Below are positions 46,581 to 59,251 of a DNA stretch of 64,000 nt, piece by piece (position 1 is the first letter of the stretch; each line of letters opens with the position of its first letter). The DNA is from Heterostelium pallidum (taxonomy: Eukaryota): NCBI RefSeq assembly GCF_000004825.1, contig NW_008805103.1, positions 183,941-247,940 of the forward strand, read 5' to 3'. The translations under genes and the position numbers were made by a program. The notes beneath the pieces were generated by a model. The model did no database searches and was not told the origin of the DNA. It saw nothing but the letters and a program-made list of their open reading frames with translations.

Positions 46581-49500
46581 TTATTTATTTGGTATTACTA
46601 TTGTTTCCATTGGTACACTGACGGGCTTGAAATTTTGAGATGAGTTTATATCGCTAGACATTTCTCGCTTTCTGTAGAAAATGTAGGCAACGGCAGCTCC
46701 TATTACGGCAGCTCCACCAATTCCAACACCAAGTCCAATCGCTAGATTCCTGTTTTTTCTTGCTTGTGCTGATCCTGGACAACGATCCATTTGCATCGTC
46801 ACTTGATATCCACAGCTGATGTTTGAAACAAAGTAAACAATATATCTTCCACTGGTCAGTGGTAACTGAATGTACTCGTCGACCAACGACGAGTTGAAAA
46901 CGGTTGACTCTGCTTCGATATTGTAGATTCCTAGTTTGAATGGGAAGTTGGCTGTCGCTTTAAGTACTTCACAATCTGGGAAATCGAGTGACGGTTGGAA
47001 ATCCATTGTCTTTATCTCGAGACTTCGTGGTTTGAGATTACGTTGACATATTCTGTCGTTGATTACTCCTCGCACTTCGTAGAGATCGGCTTTGAGATCG
47101 GTGAATCCTGTGCTTGAATATTGGTAGTCTTGAGTAGGTACCACTCTAAGCGAGAAATTGAGGAATATGAAGTTTCCGTTCAGCACCGGTGTAATATAAC
47201 CGTTGCCAGCTCTTGGACACACATAGGTTGAGTAGTCCCATTGCAACTCTGGTTCGGTTGAAACAATTTCAATGGTGGCATACTCGTAGCAGAATGGATT
47301 GGTGAGTCGAGTGAGCGTGTAGTTTCCGGTGGTCAGTGAGTAGAATCGGGTGTGAGTACCATTGACATGAGTTTGAATGAGTGAGTTACTTCCTTTCTCC
47401 AATAAACGATAGGATTCTCCAGTTGGAGAATTTGGTATCACAATGCTACCATCATAACTTCCAAGACATGATTCATGATGAACAACGACATTGGAGGTGT
47501 CTAAAGTAGTACCAGTATATCCATTATCCACATATATTGCTGATGAAGAACAGGATGTTGCTCTATGTTCATAGTTGATAGTCAGTGGACCAGCCGGTAC
47601 ATTACTAAGTTGTCCATTGTCCTTCAAAATATAGCTACTCATTTGATCTAAAGAAAATACAAAATCATTATAATTTGTGAAAATATATGAATTTGCTAGG
47701 TTGGAACAAGTTGCTTGTTTTGTTTCCAATTTTGGTTGTACAGGAAGAGCTATGAGAATTATGAAAGAATATTAGAAAATTATTATTGTTTAGAAAAGAA
47801 ATGATAAGGTTGTAACATACGAGTTGAAAAAACAGAGATATAAAAGTTGTCATTACAACCACCATTCCATGAGTATAGAATTCTTGCATTCATGGGGATC
47901 GATGGTGCAGATATTTGAATTATGATATAGGATGATGATACTGGAATAACGGTGGATGCACTGGTGATAAGTTCAACTTTGGCAGAATCCAGGTTGATTC
48001 CTTCGTATGCTGATTTTAAGTGAATGGTTGCGTACTGAACCAAACAAGTTGGTTGCTCCACAGTGTAGGTTACAATTGGTCCAGTGTACATAGGAATGTT
48101 TATCGATGTCCGATATTGACACTTTCCATAGTTGACGATTACAAAGTTATCAGGATATAGACCGGTGACAAAGTTGTTGGTGACGTTATAACGAACGATT
48201 GCACCATTCGAGTAGATATCTGTTATTGGAGGTGATGTACCATTGTCGAATTTCAACGATACCAGCGCAATTGAATCTACCAGCGCAAGATTATTGTTAA
48301 TACAGGATCCATCGCGGACTTTAACGAGATTGGCTGTTGCTGGTGGAACATCGAAATAGACAATGGCAGAGTTGATACAAGCCGAGTTGTTTCGTTTGTA
48401 ATCTATTTTCTTGGAGGAAGCATCCAAACCTGTGAAACTACCGTTGACTGCATTTGCACTTCCCAGCTTGATGTAGGAGTAGTTCTGATAGTTCTTTACA
48501 TTGATTGAACCGGTCGTGGCAAAACATGGTGGTGTAACCATAGTGTACTGGAAGTCAGGATCCACCTTTAAAACTGGAACTTGAATCCTACCAGTGAATG
48601 TACAATAACTTGAATAGTCATCGGTATAAACAATCTTGAGATCCAGAGCATCGTCACTTCTCACCACAATAGTATTATTATTGACACCAACCTGTATAAT
48701 TCCAGATTCAACTTTCTTTATTTTCAAGGCGGTTGTCATCTGAACTTTTGTCAATAAATCATAACAACCTGTTTGACTAGCAGAGAAACTAAAACTTGGT
48801 TTATACATTGGCGCTGTAAATAAAAATTAGTAAATCACATTATGCTTATTATTAATTAAATTCTATTCTTACGTATTGGTGTTGGGTATTTAACTGAAGG
48901 AATTGTACAACCAAAAATATTGTTGGGTGATTTGAATTGGAATTCCAATAGATCTCCTGCTCTATATTCAATTGATGGTGTAATATAGGTGGTTTGCAAT
49001 GGATTGTAGTAAAATTCGGCATGTGCACTACCGTTTTGTGCACATGATGCTGGTCGTTCAATGACGTGCTTTACCAAAAAGTCAAAGGGATTCAAAGGGA
49101 AGTTGTCGAATGTGAAATTCTTTCTTCTCAAATAGTTGTAGTTTTGACAATCACTGTTCTGATACAATACGTATCCATCGACACCTCTTGGCATCCTCGA
49201 GATGAGTCCATAGTTTGACAATGAGTATTCGGTGTAGGAAGGATTGGTGGGATCACGGATATTCACGAAAACACGCAGTACTTTGAAGTGCAAAAAGTTT
49301 GGAATAAATAAAGAGGTATTGTACATACAGTTGAGGTAAGGCAAGTCTTCAAAGATCAACTTTGGCTCTTCACCAGAGATATTTAGACTACCGATCTGTT
49401 CTGACAGACCATAGTTCATTGTCATTAATTTGTCTGCCTGAATTTGGTAAACATTGTTTGGATATTTAGTGGTTTGGCCATACACATAGTTAAGTGGGAT

Positions 49501-50676
49501 CGAAGGTTTGTTGACACCCTGACTTATAGTGATATTAAAAACTTTATCTACACATATATCTGTATTTGGATTTGTAAATTCATAGCTAATTGGTGTATAG
49601 TCAAAGTCTAAAAAACAATTTATAGGTTAGAAAATTACACAATTAGTTAATCAAAATACAACTATCAGCTACTTACTTGCAACAGGTAATTTTAATGATT
49701 GAGAAAATGTAAGATTTTCACTTTGATACTTTGCTGTTAATTGATTTACATTGATTGCTGGTAAATTTGGAAATAGAAGACTGCTACCATTCACAGTGAA
49801 TGATAGTGTTGGGTTTACCAGGTTGGTGTTGAGTATCGTTGCATTGGTTACGTTCATATAACCATCGAGAGTGGTAGCTACCGCTTCGAATGCAATCGTT
49901 GGATACTGTCGGTCGATCGTTTGAAGTTCAAATGGAATACGCTCGATACCACATACCGCTGAAACCAACTCCAGAGTGTATTGGCCGGGTAGCAAGTTAT
50001 TCGCTCTGTATTGAGTGGATGCGCTGATATTGTATTCAGGATGTCCAACCAGCACGATCGATTGATACTGATCACCGTTTCTCACGACAATGGAAGCATC
50101 TTCATTGGTGTAAGTGTATGGTGTTATATGATACGCTGGAATATTCGAGGAGATAGGTGTCATTTGGAATACTTTTTCGCATTTACCAATCGCCAGTGTA
50201 TTCCAACCGACATTGCTGACTTGCACCGGTCCATTATTATTATCGAGTAGTACGCCATTCAAATAGAATTTATCGTTGGAATTTTTCAGTCCGAGAACAC
50301 TGACCGATCCCACGGAATATCTACAGAGTGGTTGTGTCAAATTCAGCTGGACTGAGGTGTAGAGGAATTGGGTGGAGTTGGTGCAATTGTTTGAATCTGT
50401 ATATTGAATTGTGTACTGAAGATTGTCTTGGAGTTGGTAGACAACGGTGCTTACGACACCGTCGTATACTTGCGCCGCCACCGGTGTAACACTCCAATCG
50501 AGAAGATTCGTAATATTAATAGTATAGAGCGAATAGTCAGCTCCTGTCGTCGGACAATATCCACTGACAATATTTGCCACCAGACTCAAACAACCAGCAC
50601 CATTGGCAACAATATCTATTTGGCTGATCGATCCAACCAAAAAAAATATTAACGCCAACAACGATAATTGATTCAT
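46581..50676 (-). CDS. Type I transmembrane glycoprotein of unknown function (~1294 aa): signal peptide, large beta-rich N-glycosylated ectodomain, single C-terminal TM, 31-aa cytoplasmic tail; 4 exons
   Basis: Exons 50676-49689 (MNQLSLLALIFFLVGSISQ..), 49607-48873, 48813-47821, 47749-46581. Donors GTAAGT/GTAAGA/GTATGT, all in phase 1. C-terminus ..NRNLAIGLGVGIGGAAVIGAAVAYIFYRKREMSSDINSSQNFKPVSVPMETIVIPNK*. Ectodomain rich in T/S/N/Y/V/G with many N-x-S/T sites and scattered Cys. No motif I can assign to a known family; possibly Ig/IPT-like folds. Confidence 0.7.
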
Positions 50677-51773
50677 CCTCAAATCTCTTTATGGATGGAT
50701 TATATATTATATTTATTTATTGATTTATAGAAATAAATATTTATATTTATATTTATATTTTATTTATTTTAAAAAAAGTAAAAATTAATAATATTATTGT
50801 TGTTTGTTTCGATTTACACACACTGCCAAAATAATCAAAAGGTTTTGTTAACAACCAAACCAAAACAAGAGCTTGCGATTAATTCTCATAAAAATCACTT
50901 CAAAAAAGAAGTTTGTGGTCATTTCATCTTTCTTCTTCATTTAAATTTGATTGGATTTATTAATGTTTTTAAAACTGTTAAATATTTTTGGTTTTTTTTT
51001 GTAAATTATTTAAACTCAAAAAAAAGATTTTTTTTTTGTTTATTATTTTAAAAAGGTTCGTTGAATTCTGAAAAAATATCTAAAAATATTGGTAAAAAAC
51101 TATTTATTTTAAATTTTGATTTTTTTTTTAAGAATCTTTAAATTTATCGCATTGAAAAAAATAATGCGATAAATTATATAACATTAAAGTAGTATTTATT
51201 GATATTTGTTTATCATCTCATCAAGACTTTTTTTCATTGTGCATAAAATCAAGTTTTAACTTAGATTTATTATAAACACTGCTGCACAATAATCCAATGG
51301 TGTCATCTTGATGGTTTTTTTTTTACTGTTTTGCAATAAATGGATGATTCAACATTATTGTTGTCCATTTAAAATTAACATTGACGAACGAAAAAAAAAA
51401 AAAATCAAAACTCTGCAAAGGGATTTCGAATCAAAAATAACTACTAATTTAAAAAAATTGGGATGGAACAAATGCATTAAAGCCGATGCATCTCCATTGA
51501 ATTTAATAATTTTTTTTGTTTTTCTCACTTTCATGTGATAGTATGCCATCCCGACGACAAATAAATTAAAACATAATGAATACATTGAATATGGACATCC
51601 ATTTTTTTTTTTTTTGTTTAAAAATGTATTTTTTTTAAATTTCTTTAATTTCATTTTTGGAAAATTCATTTGATTCGTTTGACACTCTTTTTTGTTTTTT
51701 AAACAGGTGAACTAACTGACTTAGTAGAGATCTTAATCTGAAAAATAATTATTAATAATAATAATAAGAAAGA

Positions 51774-54395
51774 ATGAATAGTAATAACCATTTCTTTAGT
51801 AGTAATAATAATAACTTGGCTAAATCAGCTGAGATACCTGTTTCTGATTATTCATTCAATCAGATTCACGAAAATGATGAAGCAAACATTGTCATTGTAA
51901 GTTGATTTATTATACCTCAAAACAAAAATGAAGATATATATATTGACAATTGTATCAATCTATCAATATTATTTGTTTAGTTAAATGAACCTTCACTTGC
52001 ACAATGGATGGGATCTATTCATCCAAATGGTTCGCTATACGAAGAACCACTCGATCTTTCAAAGGCACAAGAGGAACACAGAAAATTCAGAAAGTTGCTC
52101 GAAGACGAAGGATGTACTGTTAAGACTGTTAGAGAGATTCTTACTTCTGTAAGTAATTTGTGATAGATGAGATAGATGAGATGATAGATGTTTTTCATTA
52201 AGTAGTATTGACAAGTATATTTTTAAACTTTTTTTTTTTAGGAAACAGGTGACATTGCAAAAAGAGTAAGATTAGAAGAGTTTGCTTTCAAATGTATCAA
52301 ATACGAGTTGGATACCAATCAAAAGAAAGAGGAATTGGGTGCAAAAGATCAATTGTTACTCTCTGACGACTACAAACGTAAATGTATTGACTCTATGAGT
52401 GTTGAGCAATTGGTAGAGGTAATCCTTACAAGACCAACCATTAAATTAAGAAAATCCGAAAGAGATACAGAGCTATTGGCAACTGAATATTCATTGTATG
52501 TAGCGGATAGCTATTTTTAATATTTGACATATGTTTAATTTAATTGACTCTATTTTCTTTTCAATAATAGCCATCCATTGGTAAATTTAGTTTTCCAAAG
52601 AGATCAACAAATTACTACGGCAAAGGGAATTGTTATGGCGAGTTTGAGTTCACCTATTCGTGCACCAGAGGTAGAGTTGATGCGTTTGTGCTTTGATATT
52701 CTGGGATTGCCGGTGGTCGGTGAGATTCCAGCGCCTGGAAAGTTGGAGGGTGGTGATTTCTATCCATCGGGATCGGATCTTTGTTTTATTGGTGTTGGAT
52801 TGCGTTCGAATTTCGCAGCGGTCGACTATCTCATGCGAAACGACTTGTTTGGAACGAACCGTGTCGCCGTCGTCAAAGACTACTTTGATTTGCATCAGCA
52901 GCGTATGCATTTGGATACCGTTTGCAACATTATCAATGAGCGAACCATGTTGATTCTCGAAGATATCTGTGGAGAGGAGTCACCGATTCGTCGTTTGGTC
53001 GACGAGTATCGTCGCGATCCCGCAACCGGTCGCTACGAGTTGGTGCGTCACGACATTGAGTTCTCAAAGTATCTCGTTGAGCAGGGTTACGAGCTGCTGA
53101 AAGTGACCAACCAGAATCAAATGGACTATGGTTGCAACGGTCTCAATATCGGCAAGGGAAAGTTCATTGTCGTCGACCAGGCAACTGCCAAGACCATCGC
53201 ACGAAAGATGAAATCCACTGTCAAACTGTTGTTTGTTGACTTTAGAACTGTTACTAAAATGTATGGATCAGTTCACTGTTGTTCACAAGTCGTCAGTAGG
53301 CGCACTTCCCATGTGACCAATGCACAACATGGAGCATCGCCAACTCTTGTGCCATCAACTGACAGCAGTTGTACCAAACCAAACAACAACATCAACAACA
53401 ACAAAGTATGTAGTCAGAGCTCGAATAAAGTGCTTATGGTTTCTCCTACCTACTTTGTAAAAGCTAGAATCGGTAGTGAGTTGGTGAATGCGTCGGTTAT
53501 CCGTGAGACAAGAACCAAAGTGTTGCACGACTACTCTGCATTGCACCGTGAGCTGAGGAAGCACAATGTCGATGTACATCTGTTCTGTCACGAACCACAT
53601 CACAACACCGATCAAGCTGTGTTTGTATCGGAGTGGTTCTCTACTCACTCGGCTGAGGAGGTCGGCGAGAAGACACTCGTACTCTACCCAATGGCGGATC
53701 CATCGCGTCGTGACGAGAGAAGAACCGATATTCTCTCGAATGGATTCTCTGGATACACAAGAGTGGTCGATTTCACAGGAATGGAGAACGGTGCTTCCAC
53801 TTATCGACTTACCACCATTGCCGAGTTGGTAGGTGATTCCAACAATGACACGCAGCTGAAGTCGCCAACCTTGGGATTGTCAATCAGTCAAGCCGCTAGA
53901 GAAGGACAGTACTTGGATTTCGCAGGATTGGTATTGGATCGTGTCAACAAGGTTGTCTATTGCGCCGTCGATGAGGAGCGCTATCATAGCAACGTCATTG
54001 AGCAGTGGGCAAAGGTGATGAAATACACACTCGTCAAGGTCAAGTCACAAGGTTACTCTGCGAGTATGTTCCTTTTCATTGGATCGTCGATTGTCTTGTT
54101 TTGTCGTGATGCGCTATCTGCCGAAGATGCTGCACTCGTCGAGAAACAACTCGGTAACAGCAGACCGATTCTCTATCTCACCAAACAACAAATGGAAAAC
54201 AGTTGTTCCAAGGTAATTGAGATCGGTGGATGCGACAAACCCGCACTTATCATCAGTCAAGCATGCTTCAATCAACTCGATACCAAACAGATCGAGCTAT
54301 TGAACAACACCTATGAAATCAATCAAATCGATATGTCATCGATTGAATCTCTAGGTGGTACAGGTATTCATGGTATGGTTGGTGGTTTATTCTAA
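51774..54395 (+). CDS. Bi-domain guanidino-group-modifying enzyme: arginine-deiminase-like N-terminal domain fused to a DDAH/amidinotransferase-like C-terminal domain, 4 exons, ~789 aa
   Basis: Exons 51774-51896, 51981-52148, 52242-52495, 52571-54395. Domain 1 has ADI hallmarks: ..EEHRKFRKLLEDEGCTV.., FHPLVNLVFQRD (compare HPMPNLYFTRD), LEGGDF, and a C-terminal catalytic-Cys motif GSVHCCSQVV (compare GGGxHCMT). After an N/S-rich linker, domain 2 (..HNTDQAVFVSEWFSTHS..TLVLYPMADPSRRDERRTDIL..) resembles DDAH (..LPDCVFVEDVAVV..TALITRPGAPSRRKEVDMM..) and ends ..KVIEIGGCDKP... Confidence 0.7.
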
Positions 54396-54551
54396 AACAC
54401 AAACAACATCAACAAAACAACAACAACAACAATAACAAAGACGACAACAACAACAACAACTTCTTAATCTTCTTAAAATAAAGTATAATTATTAATTTTA
54501 GTTATTTACAAATAAGTTAACATAACATATCTTTTGTGTGTTAACTACTTT

Positions 54552-55994
54552 TTATTTATTATGTTTAAGTATATATTGTTTTAATTGATTTATATCTAAT
54601 GACATTTCAAAACGATTTAGATTGTTTGAAGATTGTTGTTCTAGCAGTTTTCTTGTTGGTTCAAATTGTTGTTCAACCGATTGTTTACTGTTGATTGCTC
54701 GATCAACTGTTTCACTGAATTTAGCTGGGTGTGCTGTTGACAGACAGATCAAAACGTGATCGTTACTGTTTTGATTGTAGTGAGAGTAGTTTGTTAGTCC
54801 ATGGTGTTTGGCAGCTGCCAATCCTATTGCTGTATGTGGATCGAGTGTGTAGTTTAGTGTTTGATGGTAACTGGCGATGGTCTCTACGATCTCTTGTTGA
54901 CCGACATGTGCAGAGAGGAATCGATCGGCTTTAGTTTGATCGAGTTGCTCTTGATTGATAGTCGCTGTGCCTTGTGAGTTGAATTCATTCATAAACTTGA
55001 CGAGTCTATCGGAATCCTCGTTAAAGAGGTAGTAGAGATATCGCTCAAAGTTGCTGGCTACGTTGATATCCATTGCCGGCGCAACGGTAGGAACTACGGA
55101 CGCTGGCTTTACATATCTACCTTCCCTAAAGAATCGATCGAGAATATCGTTGTCGTTGGTCGACACAATGAGATTGTCGACTGGCAATCCCATCTTACTC
55201 GCATAGAAACCCGCCAAGATATCGCCAAAGTTGCCGGTTGGCACAGAGAAGGTGACGCTCTTTGCACCCGATTGGAAGTAAGCGTGGAAATAGTAAACCA
55301 TTTGAGCGAGAATACGTGCCCAATTGATGGAATTCACTACACCCAGCCGCTGTGAGTGTTTAAACGCTTGGTCGTTCATCAGCGTCTTTACAAGCGATTG
55401 ACAATCGTCAAAGTTGGAATTGGTCACCGCGATAGGATGAATGTTATCATCGTTGACAGTTACCATCTGTAGCTCTTGAACAGCGGAGATTCTTCCCTTT
55501 GGATAGAGCACAAACAGCGAGAGGTTTTGACGCGCGCGCAAACCGGCAATCGCTGCGCTTCCGGTGTCGCCAGAGGTGGCGGCGACGACGGTCATCGGCT
55601 CGCTCAGTACATACTCAAAGAGATTGCCTAACAGCTGTAGAGCGACGTCTTTAAAGCTAAAGGTAGGACCGTGAAATAGCTCTAGGACCAGAGTGTTTCC
55701 CGACGGTGACAGTCGGTGTAGCGGAGTTATCTTGGTGTCGGAGAATGTCGAGTAGGCGCGCTCGATGAGAGCTTTGAGATCGGCAGCTGGTATATCGGAA
55801 CGATCGATATACAGCGACAGTATCTCAAACGATAGCTCTTGGAATGACTTGTTTCTCCAACTCTCGAGAGTCTCTGACGATAGCTTTGGAATGCTCTGAG
55901 GAATCAGCAGACCACCGTCATCTGCCAGACCCATCTTAACAGCATCTACAAATGTTAAACCATTTATCTTTCCTCTTGTACTTTTATATTTCAT
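54552..55994 (-). CDS. Threonine synthase (PLP-dependent, fold type II), single exon, 480 aa
   Basis: N-terminus MKYKSTRGKINGLTFVDAVKMGLADDGGLLIPQSIP matches the eukaryotic/yeast THR4-type N-terminus. PLP-lysine motif PTFSFKDVALQ. Uninterrupted minus-strand ORF. Confidence 0.9.
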   Translation of the reverse strand: MKYKSTRGKINGLTFVDAVKMGLADDGGLLIPQSIPKLSSETLESWRNKSFQELSFEILSLYIDRSDIPAADLKALIERAYSTFSDTKITPLHRLSPSGNTLVLELFHGPTFSFKDVALQLLGNLFEYVLSEPMTVVAATSGDTGSAAIAGLRARQNLSLFVLYPKGRISAVQELQMVTVNDDNIHPIAVTNSNFDDCQSLVKTLMNDQAFKHSQRLGVVNSINWARILAQMVYYFHAYFQSGAKSVTFSVPTGNFGDILAGFYASKMGLPVDNLIVSTNDNDILDRFFREGRYVKPASVVPTVAPAMDINVASNFERYLYYLFNEDSDRLVKFMNEFNSQGTATINQEQLDQTKADRFLSAHVGQQEIVETIASYHQTLNYTLDPHTAIGLAAAKHHGLTNYSHYNQNSNDHVLICLSTAHPAKFSETVDRAINSKQSVEQQFEPTRKLLEQQSSNNLNRFEMSLDINQLKQYILKHNK

Positions 55995-56627: not shown

Positions 56628-59251
56628 ATGAGTGTAGATTTAAACAAAGTTATAAATACAATCAAAGAAAGAGAATTAGATAAAGTAATAGAGTTGTACA
56701 AAGATAGAAATGAATTGATTAATGATCTATTCAGTGTTTTAAATTCAAATTTCACTCAAAAAAATGTATGTATCTCATCTTTATGTTAAGGTATAATCTT
56801 TCTGTTATTTAATATATTTTTAAAATAACAGATTGTTGAGGATTGTTTCTTCATTTTGAATGAAATGATATCAAACACGATTTGGAATGATCTAACATTG
56901 ACAACAAAGATTGAATTACAATCAAAATCATTGGATCTTCTTGAATTGGAATGTAATCATCTCAACACAATCACAATTGAATTCATTAACTACCTTTATC
57001 ACAATCATAATCATGAAATCAGTAAATATATAAATAATAAATACTCTATTGTTGCAATGAATAATATGCAGCAATACTCGAAATGCTAATATTAACTAAA
57101 CTAATCAACAAATACCTTATTATTTATTATTTATAATAGATGAATATCAAAGTATATTACAATCAATATCAAAAAGATATATCAAACATAACAATACTGA
57201 ATTTAGATTCACATGTTTGGAATTGATTTGTTTGATTTTAAAATCAAAAGTATCAACTGAAGAAATCAATGAATTCGAATCATCACTTTCAAATTTGATC
57301 ACAATCAGCTTTGAACAACCCAATGACAATACATTGTATTTTATCAAACATTTCGAAATAATCAAACCAAATTTTCCTGATTTACGTATAGAAAATGAAA
57401 CAATTACGACCTATCTTAACAATGTAAGTTTTTAAACCTTGAAAATAGATATCTAGATAAATATTAAAAGCTCGACAATTATTGTACAAATCTATAGAGA
57501 TTTGATGATTATATCATGAGTGAATCATACAACACAACAGTTTTCTCGAATTTCTTTGAAGAAATATTTGAATTATCAGATTCAAATAAATTGGATGATC
57601 GTAAGTTTATCTTAGTCTTATTCCTTTCAAAAGATAATTAATATACTAATAACTTACTTTCCTTATTATTTTACAATATAATTGAATAGGTATCGCTCTT
57701 GTTTTATTGAGTAATCTAATATCTGCTACCGAAGACGAAGATGTTCAAATTGAAGAAGAATTCAAAGATAAATACTTGCATTTCATTTTCAAACAATTTT
57801 TTAAAATAGATGATACACAAGTTCAAAGATGGGATGATCAAGTAAGTATAAAAATTTTTGTTAAATATAATTTTGTATTATTTAACTTTTAATATTATTT
57901 AATATTTTAGAAACAAGTGTGTAGTTCCTCAGGCTTTCCAATTCTATGTTTAAATTCAATAGCTTTTACATACGACAAGCTTTTATATCAAAGATTCAAG
58001 GAGTTAAAAGATCAAGTCATTCAAACTGGAGATTGGAAACAGTTATGTGGATTATCAACTATAGCTAGCGTGACACTTAAAGATTATATCGATGAATATA
58101 CTTATATTGGGTAAAGTGATATATTTTTGGAAAAAGAAATACTCTCTTACTAATTAATTAAAAAAATTTCAAGTGTTTATAAATGGATTTCTGAATACTT
58201 TGTTCATCCAGAACCATATGTAAGAGCAAACTATATCGAATTAGCTGTAGCTTTGATCGAACAATGTGAACCAACAGTTGAAGAAACCATTACTTTATTG
58301 GATAATGTGTTGAGTTTGAATGATAGTCATCCACCTGTCCAAAGAGGAATATTTAAATTAATCAACACAATGATTGCATTGGAAAATTCAAAATTCAAAG
58401 AAAAGATCGATCGAGTTTTAGAGTACTGCTCGAAATATATGAATATCGAACAACCAAATGATATTATAGAAGGTGTTGTTGGTTTAATAGGTGGCATCTG
58501 TGGCTCCATGTTTGAAAGTATTTCAAAATATGCCAATAGTTATCTTTCATTCATGATGTCAATCATAAAGAGTGATAGATTCAATCCACACAGTCACATG
58601 TTTGGTATAGTTCTTGAAGCAATAAGTGTTATCATTTTAGAATCTCACGGCTCGGTCGATGTTGGTTTCAAACATTCATTTGAAACCATTGAGATTATCA
58701 AGAGAAACATGCCACCTCATACCGATGAGACATCGGGTAACTACGCCAGATCTTTGGTTCGATTTGTCCAAGCATTGAAAGCGAAATTCCAACCACATTA
58801 TGAATTCCTCATTCACTACCTTATCAATACTCTCGATTTCCAATGGGATGAAATCAAGCAAATCTCGCAGGATGAACTAGATTCTCGTCATGAGACCATT
58901 GGGTTGACAATTGCATTGATTCCCCTGCTTACATCCGAACAACAACCATCAATCCAACCATACATCGGACAACTTATAACCCAGCTTTACAAAATGATCG
59001 ACTTTGGATCAGTAATAATCAAAGAAGATTCAGTTCGTTTACTTTCACTTTTATTTGAAACTACAATTACACACTATCAACTCACTAATCTCAATAACAA
59101 ATCCAACACAAACAACAAACATATCGAAACACTTCGTCAATCGATCATAAGTAGACTCCAACAATCGATTGATATGGAAGAGGACGAAGATGTTTTAGAA
59201 ATCAAAGAAGAGGAACTTGAAAATATTAGTAAACTATTAATTAAAAATTAA
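56628..59251 (+). CDS. Multi-exon alpha-helical (HEAT/ARM-repeat-like) protein of unknown function
   Basis: At least 8 coding exons linked by GTATGT/GTAAAT/GTAAGT donors. First exon 56628-56765 (MSVDLNKVINTIKERELDKVIELYKDRNELINDLFSVLNSNFTQKN). Exons follow at ~56832-56999, ~57141-57423, ~57494-57600, ~57690-57842, ~57910-58114. Last large exon ~58170-59251 (..WISEYFVHPEPYVRANYIELAVALIEQCEPTVEE..LENISKLLIKN*). Helical-repeat character and leucine periodicity. No catalytic motif seen. Confidence 0.6.

Follow-up and report, generated by a model that had tools for sequence, protein, structure and literature searches.

Here, we describe a gene of the dictyostelid Heterostelium album PN500 (formerly Polysphondylium pallidum; assembly GCF_000004825.1 is listed under Heterostelium pallidum), found in a 64,000-nucleotide stretch of contig NW_008805103.1 (positions 183,941 to 247,940; hereafter the window, to which all coordinates refer). 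The gene occupies positions 51774-54395 of the window and is the H. album orthologue of D. discoideum DDB_G0272182. Its product carries an arginine deiminase (ADI) half followed by a second half that resembles CtlX, a putative citrulline hydrolase. Our comparisons make it likely that an active ADI is joined by a disordered linker to a pseudoenzyme derived from CtlX, the relic of an old two-step enzyme that has been kept as a structural or regulatory partner. The presence of two distantly paralogous guanidino-modifying-enzyme (GME) folds in one polypeptide had been proposed in a first-pass annotation of the window and is confirmed by Pfam matches to PF02274 and PF19420.

The two domains and their active-site residues

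Profile comparison of the N-terminal half revealed a nearly complete match to the Pfam ADI family PF02274 (E=1.2e-55; 189.6 bits against a cut-off of 22.8; model positions 4-377 of 377). The ADI motifs are complete, with Asp193 in FQRD, Glu241 and Asp244 in LEGGD, His295 and Asp297 in MHLD, and the HCC motif near the end of the domain. The catalytic Cys, His, and Glu (C418, H295, and E241) and the two guanidinium-binding Asp residues (D193 and D297) are all there, and these five positions, together with D244, are invariant in 13 eukaryotic ADIs. The identification of the first ~430 aa as an arginine deiminase, made from motifs in the first-pass annotation, is thereby upheld. A phmmer search of the N half against PDB sequences returned arginine deiminases only, among them the S. 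pyogenes ADI 4BOF (2.7e-10), whose alignment pairs FTRD with FQRD, EGGD with EGGD, MHLD with MHLD, and RCMS with HCCS. By sequence, the N half thus appears to be a catalytically complete arginine deiminase, predicted to convert arginine and water to citrulline and ammonia. The D. discoideum ADI has already been placed in a published phylogeny of the eukaryotic ADI clade, and the second domain is unmentioned in that survey (Novák et al. 2016, PMC5052871).

The C-terminal half matched the NCBIfam model CtlX NF046062 ('citrulline utilization hydrolase') over its full length (4.7e-38), the sole meaningful match among the NCBI curated models, with a score of 131 bits against an equivalog threshold of 334. 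When a stand-alone dictyostelid CtlX was used as the phmmer query, the H. album C half was recovered at 2e-29. The half also scored well over the gathering score of Pfam PF19420 (DDAH_eukar; E=2.5e-37; 129.1 bits against a cut-off of 23), in agreement with the superfamily membership first proposed for it. The CtlX family owes its definition to transposon fitness data, which led to its description as a putative citrullinase (citrulline to ornithine and carbamate); its hallmarks are FPNN and HTN at the places of FTRD and HLD in arginine deiminases (Price et al. 2022, PMC9007349). An AlphaFold (AF2) model of the C half, built on 26 sequences, reached a predicted local distance difference test score (pLDDT) of 89.6 and a predicted template modelling score (pTM) of 0.89. 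It was weak only at an insertion of ~40 aa (pLDDT 57-60, model residues 141-160), which occurs in dictyostelids, partly in Ceratiomyxa, and is absent from the aligned intact CtlX-type domains. A Foldseek search of this model against the PDB retrieved DDAH1, the N-domains of ArgZ/AgrE, P. aeruginosa DDAH, and RESC5, where DDAH stands for dimethylarginine dimethylaminohydrolase (probability 1.0, TM 0.6-0.77, identity 11-15%). AstB, agmatine deiminase, and AGAT were also matched with a probability of 1.00, and 58 chains were found at E≤0.001. Taken together, the profile matches and the predicted structure indicate that the second half is a genuine pentein/GME fold.

The catalytic triad looked for in this second half is missing, since Gly783 stands at the Cys position, Ser678 at the His position, and Asp631 at the Glu of LEG (Table 1). 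Three alignments agree on the active-site replacements in H. album, namely a MAFFT alignment of ~50 fused C-terminal domains with 5 stand-alone CtlX-like proteins, a 13-sequence alignment, and an hmmalign alignment of ~195 domains. Across 124 intact CtlX-type domains, 42 positions show a conservation of ≥90%. H. album retains 23 of them, all framework residues, and every invariant active-site candidate (N, N, E, T, H, N, N, G, R, and C) is replaced. No sequence-related solved structure was found for the C half in the PDB, either by phmmer with the single sequence or by hmmsearch with a 13-sequence profile; the residues were therefore mapped on the family alignments and on an hhalign match of the N half to the C half. 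The latter match, which is weak (probability 17.7%, E=0.0014), places Gly783 opposite Cys418, YSAS opposite MHLD, and LDFAG opposite LEGGD. In the dictyostelid alignment, the nucleophile Cys column holds Gly in 11 of 12 sequences and Tyr in Cavenderia, and no conserved substitute nucleophile was seen at the active-site positions. GME enzymes work via a covalent Cys-thiouronium intermediate; with the nucleophile lost, the H. album C domain therefore cannot be such a hydrolase. The suggestion that one of the two domains might be a regulatory pseudoenzyme fits this loss of Cys, His, and Glu.

We further compared D. discoideum with D. firmibasis by the Nei-Gojobori method and obtained ratios of nonsynonymous to synonymous substitution rates (dN/dS) of 0.034 for the ADI domain, 0.21 for the C domain, and 0.48 for the linker. 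Among dictyostelids, identity to H. album is 76-88% in the N half and 39-66% in the C half. On these sequence measures, the C domain is relaxed relative to the enzyme half, yet clearly constrained by purifying selection. A full-length AlphaFold model was made for the A. subglobosum orthologue, which is 75% identical to the H. album protein, and it reached pLDDT 87.4 and pTM 0.88. Low confidence was essentially confined to the N-terminus, the linker equivalent (pLDDT <50), the insertion, and a short loop with which the second domain opens. The pTM of 0.88 suggests a defined packing between the two domains in this model.

Distribution of the fusion and readings of its history

When 1.84 billion cluster representatives were scanned exhaustively with HMMER, 1169 were recovered as relatives of the C half (E≤0.001). 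Each of the 12 dictyostelid sequences under study carries the fusion (Heterostelium, Acytostelium, Synstelium, Cavenderia, Polysphondylium violaceum, Tieghemostelium, D. discoideum, D. purpureum, D. firmibasis, D. dimigraforme, and two EukProt/metagenome sequences), which answers the question of its conservation in other members of the group. It is also present in other Amoebozoa (Ceratiomyxa, Soliformovum with ankyrin repeats, Planoprotostelium, and Balamuthia), in CRuMs (Diphylleia and Rigifila), in Holozoa (Corallochytrium), in Heterolobosea (Naegleria, Willaertia, and Acrasis), in Euglenida (Euglena and a sequence clustering with Eutreptiella), and in a colponemid. The architecture had been called uncommon, a description that does not hold with ~70 fused representatives across these groups.

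To survey the motifs, only proteins covering all of them were used, comprising 69 with an ADI part and 104 stand-alone proteins. Both Cys and His are kept in 32 of the 69 ADI-containing proteins, the Cys only is lost in 17, and both are lost in 20, including all 12 dictyostelids; the corresponding counts among the stand-alone proteins are 95, 7, and 2. The seven tabulated active-site residues are all kept in 31 of the 32 fusions with Cys and His, the exception being Planoprotostelium, which reads KN and HTD. Intact fusions reach 310-332 bits on the NCBIfam CtlX model (332.4 for the colponemid fusion).

Individual fusions displayed some further variation. In the colponemid Colp12 (P0034), the CtlX half is intact and the ADI half reads RMHLSF instead of RMHLDx, so that one guanidinium-binding Asp is replaced, the reverse of the situation in dictyostelids. 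In Euglena gracilis EG_transcript_2839 (P0038), the ADI nucleophile position is Arg (GALHRSTQ) and the CtlX-like Cys position is Ser; by sequence, both halves appear to be without a nucleophile. The fusions of Soliformovum irregulare and of environmental origin (P0014, P0020, and P0032) measure 830-930 aa and carry added ankyrin repeats according to precomputed Pfam annotations. In a metagenomic representative of 721 aa (P0256), the order is reversed: the CtlX-like domain, which is intact, comes first (residues 1-292), and the ADI-like segment comes second (residues 423-561).

In every dictyostelid, a further gene encodes a CtlX-type protein of ~310 aa that stands alone and has the full set of catalytic motifs (e.g. 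P0272 in D. discoideum and P0230 in Cavenderia). The H. album copy, PPL_02240 (P0277; 311 aa), has every motif present and, at 335.5 bits, lies just above the cut-off of 334; no stand-alone CtlX copy lies within the window. The dictyostelid stand-alone proteins are ~44-46% identical to the CtlX of Mucilaginibacter (Bacteroidota). In green algae, the ADI and CtlX-like genes are separate.

We propose that the ancestor of the fusion would have been a two-step ADI–CtlX enzyme, taking arginine to citrulline and on to ornithine, CO2, and NH3. Its intact form may survive in a colponemid, in Eutreptiella-like euglenids, and in many environmental eukaryotes, with Planoprotostelium keeping Cys and His. 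On the dictyostelid lineage, the second active site would have died through loss of the nucleophile Cys, the general-base His, and two substrate-binding Asn residues, and the dead domain would have been retained as a folded, selected partner of the ADI, possibly as a scaffold or regulator. If H. album hydrolyses citrulline at all, the stand-alone PPL_02240 would do so in trans. Rough neighbour-joining trees of the two domains, which carry no support values, were congruent; one of their groups, in which the Cys is Gly throughout, comprises Dictyostelia, Ceratiomyxa, Soliformovum, CRuMs, and Corallochytrium. On the same trees, Heterolobosea, Euglena, and Balamuthia may tentatively be taken to have lost the Cys separately.

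Several points weigh against this history. The activities in the fusion family are predictions from sequence, and the citrullinase function of CtlX itself is inferred from genetics only, its own authors calling for biochemistry (PMC9007349). The mapping of the catalytic residues depends on sequence alignments and one weak profile-profile match, and the direction from intact to dead depends on neighbour-joining trees of the kind described. The transcript and dN/dS evidence comes from Dictyostelium and not from H. album, and only conservation and the high pTM point to a scaffolding or regulatory role of the dead domain.

Another reading, which we consider possible and rather doubtful, holds that the dead CtlX-like domain is a sensor that binds arginine or citrulline without turnover and acts allosterically on the ADI, and that the intact fusions constitute an unrecognised two-domain route from arginine to ornithine in eukaryotes. 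In 25 of the 37 Cys-less fusions, the second Asn of FPNN is changed to Asp or Glu, and several read HTD or HTE in place of HTN. Asp and Glu are the residue types by which ADI and DDAH grip the guanidinium group, and the replacements hint that the pocket of the Cys-less fusions may have been re-tuned from citrulline toward arginine binding. H. album retains only Glu536 of the FPNN Asp/Glu pattern.

The first-pass annotation had also considered that the protein couples two catalytic steps. In its strongest form, this would make the H. album protein a working bifunctional 'arginine dihydrolase', whose ADI half makes citrulline and whose C half hydrolyses it to ornithine, CO2, and NH3. The homology of the C half to CtlX speaks for this, as does the fusion of a citrulline producer to a putative citrulline consumer, a classic functional link, and so do the purifying selection on the C domain and the 32 fusions that keep Cys and His, together with the high CtlX scores of intact fusions. 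However, the nucleophile and the His are absent from H. album and from all 12 dictyostelids, the FPNN asparagines read SE, the GN and R near the active site are also replaced, no conserved replacement nucleophile is seen at these positions among dictyostelids, and a separate intact CtlX gene is present in the same genome. We therefore regard a bifunctional enzyme in H. album as improbable; coupling of the two steps is plausible only for other lineages that keep all CtlX residues.

If the pseudoenzyme reading is right, the gene provides a case of pseudoenzyme retention in which an active enzyme is covalently tied to a dead paralogue under selection, and since intact and dead fusions both occur in culturable protists, the two states can be compared directly. 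The wider ADI–CtlX fusion family may be the more valuable lead. The occurrence of CtlX behind ADI, the citrulline-making enzyme, in many eukaryotic groups provides independent gene-fusion (Rosetta-stone) support for the unproven citrullinase function. The finding of ADI on its own in many eukaryotes has been termed unexpected (Novák et al. 2016, PMC5052871). An ADI plus CtlX route from arginine to ornithine, needing neither ornithine transcarbamylase nor carbamate kinase, would, if true, explain the lone ADI.

Family of origin, gene model, and neighbourhood

The second half had initially been described as DDAH-like, of which the superfamily and the DDAH fold stood (PF19420 and the Foldseek matches to DDAH1), and the specific assignment to DDAH did not. 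A true DDAH in this position would let the protein couple the catabolism of free arginine and methylarginine. The matching Pfam family is indeed named DDAH_eukar, and in the Foldseek ranking bovine DDAH1 (2CI3) stands first, ahead of human DDAH1 and P. aeruginosa DDAH. However, PF19420 also takes in bacterial CtlX proteins, and the Pfam name therefore does not separate DDAH from CtlX. The structural matches share only 11-15% identity, ArgZ is an equally good match, and the catalytic Cys and His are gone. Moreover, the NCBIfam DDAH equivalogs (NF045658, NF045659, and NF045660) gave no match to the C half even at E≤1, as compared with 4.7e-38 for CtlX. On these profile comparisons, the family of origin of the C half is CtlX rather than DDAH, and a true DDAH is very unlikely.

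The gene has the four exons first proposed for it (Table 1), and all of the motifs quoted in that proposal were found in the 789-aa product: FHPLVNLVFQRD at aa 182-193, LEGGDF at 240-245, GSVHCCSQVV at 414-423, AVFVSE at 531-536, and TLVLYPMADPSRRDERRTDIL at 550-570. The spliced coding sequence measures 2370 nt and is in frame. Its three introns (84, 93, and 75 nt) have a GC content of 20-23%, donors GTAAGT or GTATGT, and AG acceptors, and a split codon TT|C across the junction of exons 3 and 4 encodes F182 of FHPLVNLVFQRD. An open reading frame (ORF) in exon 4 spans 52578-54395.

Where the models overlap, the product is 100% identical to the deposited H. album PN500 'putative arginine deiminase' (P0001). 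The deposited protein lacks exactly the 133 aa encoded by 53070-53468, a segment whose GC content of 43.6% is about twice that of the real introns and whose 133 residues are kept in every orthologue (shown for P0002, P0006, and P0011). The deposited gene model wrongly splices away the catalytic Cys of the ADI, and the four-exon model is better than the public one. For the public record this means a correction: 399 coding bases were taken for an intron, and the deposited 656-aa H. album protein misses the ADI catalytic cysteine as a result.

Table 1. Coordinates of the gene, its exons, its domains, and the active-site motifs of the two halves.
Feature	Position	Strand	Residues	Remarks
Whole gene	51774-54395	+		Four exons, ATG at 51774, TAA stop 54393-54395; 789-aa product
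Exon 1	51774..51896	+	1-41	ATG start; donor GTAAGT; spliced translation equals the N-terminus of deposited P0001
Exon 2	51981..52148	+	42-97	ADI domain begins; preceding GT..AG intron 84 nt, 20% GC; conserved in orthologues
Exon 3	52242..52495	+	98-182	Phase 2 end; flanking introns 93 and 75 nt, 23% GC
Exon 4	52571..54395	+	182-789 and TAA	Most of the ADI domain, linker, entire second domain; one open frame
Arginine deiminase domain	51852..53300	+	~27-425	Interrupted by introns; PF02274 over aa 60-425
LEGGD (ADI)	52743-52757	+		Glu241 and Asp244
MHLD (ADI)	52905-52916	+		His295 and Asp297
Catalytic Cys codon (ADI)	53277-53279	+	418	
False 'intron' of the deposited 656-aa model	53070..53468	+		399 nt, coding: ADI C-terminus with Cys418, linker, start of domain 2
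N/S/T-rich disordered linker	53301..53411	+	426-462	Stop-free
CtlX-like, DDAH-fold pseudoenzyme domain (probable)	53412..54392	+	463-789	PF19420, NCBIfam CtlX, AF2, Foldseek
FVSE	53622..53633	+	533-536	Replaces CtlX substrate-binding FPNN (ADI equivalent FTRD; correspondence per PMC9007349)
Insertion of ~40 aa in second domain	53790..53909	+	589-628	Alignment columns 170-205; low confidence
LDFAG			631 (Asp)	For CtlX LEGTG, Asp631 in place of Glu; from alignments
YSAS	54054..54065	+	677-680	Replaces CtlX YHTN; catalytic His to Ser678, Asn to Ser680
SCSK			726-732 (SCSKVIE)	Start of SCSKVIE; for CtlX FCGN, GN to SK
Gly783 codon GGT	54372..54374	+	783	Nucleophile Cys position of CtlX/ADI/DDAH; conserved CtlX motif GG(G/S)VRC; GGGVRC to GGTGIHG (RC to HG)

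A gene boundary within the linker had been named as the observation that would speak against a fusion, and a single mRNA was seen in orthologues instead (D. discoideum, Ceratiomyxa, Diphylleia, and Rigifila). Three D. discoideum RNA-seq assemblies contain 2.5-kb intronless contigs that bear the complete 802-aa fused ORF. The D. discoideum genomic copy is 69 nt longer than the transcript, which fits one intron placed after codon 48, where intron 1 lies in H. album. The fused proteins of Ceratiomyxa, Diphylleia, and Rigifila derive from Trinity transcripts. In the window, the frame is open without a stop across the N/S-rich linker, and the GC content at third codon positions (GC3) is 0.50 and 0.51 on its two sides. 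That two adjacent genes, or an assembly or annotation artefact, meet in this low-complexity, disordered linker, where the deposited model already departs from a simple reading, is hardly credible against one stop-free frame at 52571-54395 with the same codon composition on either side, the conservation of the fusion in all dictyostelid sequences and ~70 representatives, and the entire fused ORF on single D. discoideum contigs and in Trinity transcripts elsewhere.

With regard to these contigs (L004-L006), they encode the same 802-aa protein as the AX4 genome (L003) and carry synonymous differences, the exact shared prefix and suffix amounting to 585 of 2409 nt, which suggests a different strain. 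Contig L004 terminates in Illumina adapter sequence.

Within the H. album gene, GC3 steps from 0.29 in exons 1-3 (51774-52495) to 0.50 in exon 4 (52571-54392). Horizontal transfer as the source of the high GC in exon 4 was considered and set aside, because the neighbouring threonine synthase gene has a similar GC3 (0.46) and the fusion gene is orthologous across dictyostelids; other nearby ORFs have GC3 values of 0.27-0.40. An imperfect CAA/AAC repeat run occupies the 3' untranslated region right behind the stop codon (54396-54460). The intronless threonine synthase gene (54552-55994, minus strand; 480 aa with Thr_synth_N, PALP, and THR4_C) is arranged tail-to-tail with the fusion gene, at a distance of 157 bp from the stop codon of the latter. 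Four long ORFs upstream (46581-50682, minus strand; 209-382 aa) are without a Pfam match, and an ORF further downstream (58253-59251, plus strand) shows a weak match to importin-beta TPR repeats (2.3e-07). No obvious functional link to the fusion gene was seen for these neighbours, be it the threonine synthase downstream or the ORFs upstream.

Comparison with known systems

A description of the fusion was not found in the literature searched, while its architecture is visible in precomputed Pfam annotations, and databases already label the protein 'arginine deiminase'. Among known enzymes, the eukaryotic single-domain ADIs (EC 3.5.3.6, PF02274) are the closest counterparts of the N half, which shares 44-48% of its residues with the ~450-aa enzymes of green and red algae, whereas the H. 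album protein has ~330 extra residues that form the second GME fold. On the bacterial ADI equivalog models, the N half falls far below the cut-offs (80-84 bits against 414-489).

For the C half, CtlX shares the fold and the framework motifs WFSTH, LYP..RR.ERR, VLDR, and QM. It differs in that the H. album half has FPNN, E, H, N, GN, R, and C replaced, stands fused behind an ADI, and contains the 40-aa insertion. DDAH (human and bovine DDAH1 and the P. aeruginosa enzyme) has the pentein α/β-propeller fold and the Pfam family name in common with it and provides the top Foldseek matches (E 3e-10, TM up to 0.76), whereas identity is low (11-15%), no DDAH model of NCBIfam is matched, and the Cys-His pair is absent from the H. 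album C half.

The GME-fold N-domain of the cyanobacterial ArgZ/AgrE (PDB 6JUY and 6LRF) is as good a match to the C half as DDAH (E 5e-10, TM 0.64-0.77). In ArgZ, both hydrolytic steps take place in one active site of one domain, with the net conversion of arginine to ornithine, 2 NH3, and CO2. The same net chemistry would be expected of an intact ADI–CtlX fusion, where it would be split over two paralogous domains, the second of which is probably dead in H. album.

Finally, T. brucei RESC5 (PDB 8DPK; PMC9980740) combines a DDAH-like fold with replacement of the catalytic Cys and His (by Ala and Pro) and is a conserved, functional, non-catalytic partner. By analogy, it is the clearest precedent for a dead member of the DDAH fold. 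RESC5 is, however, a stand-alone protein of the RNA-editing complex and is confined to kinetoplastids, whereas the H. album domain appears to be derived from CtlX and is covalently joined to a paralogous enzyme that is predicted to be active.

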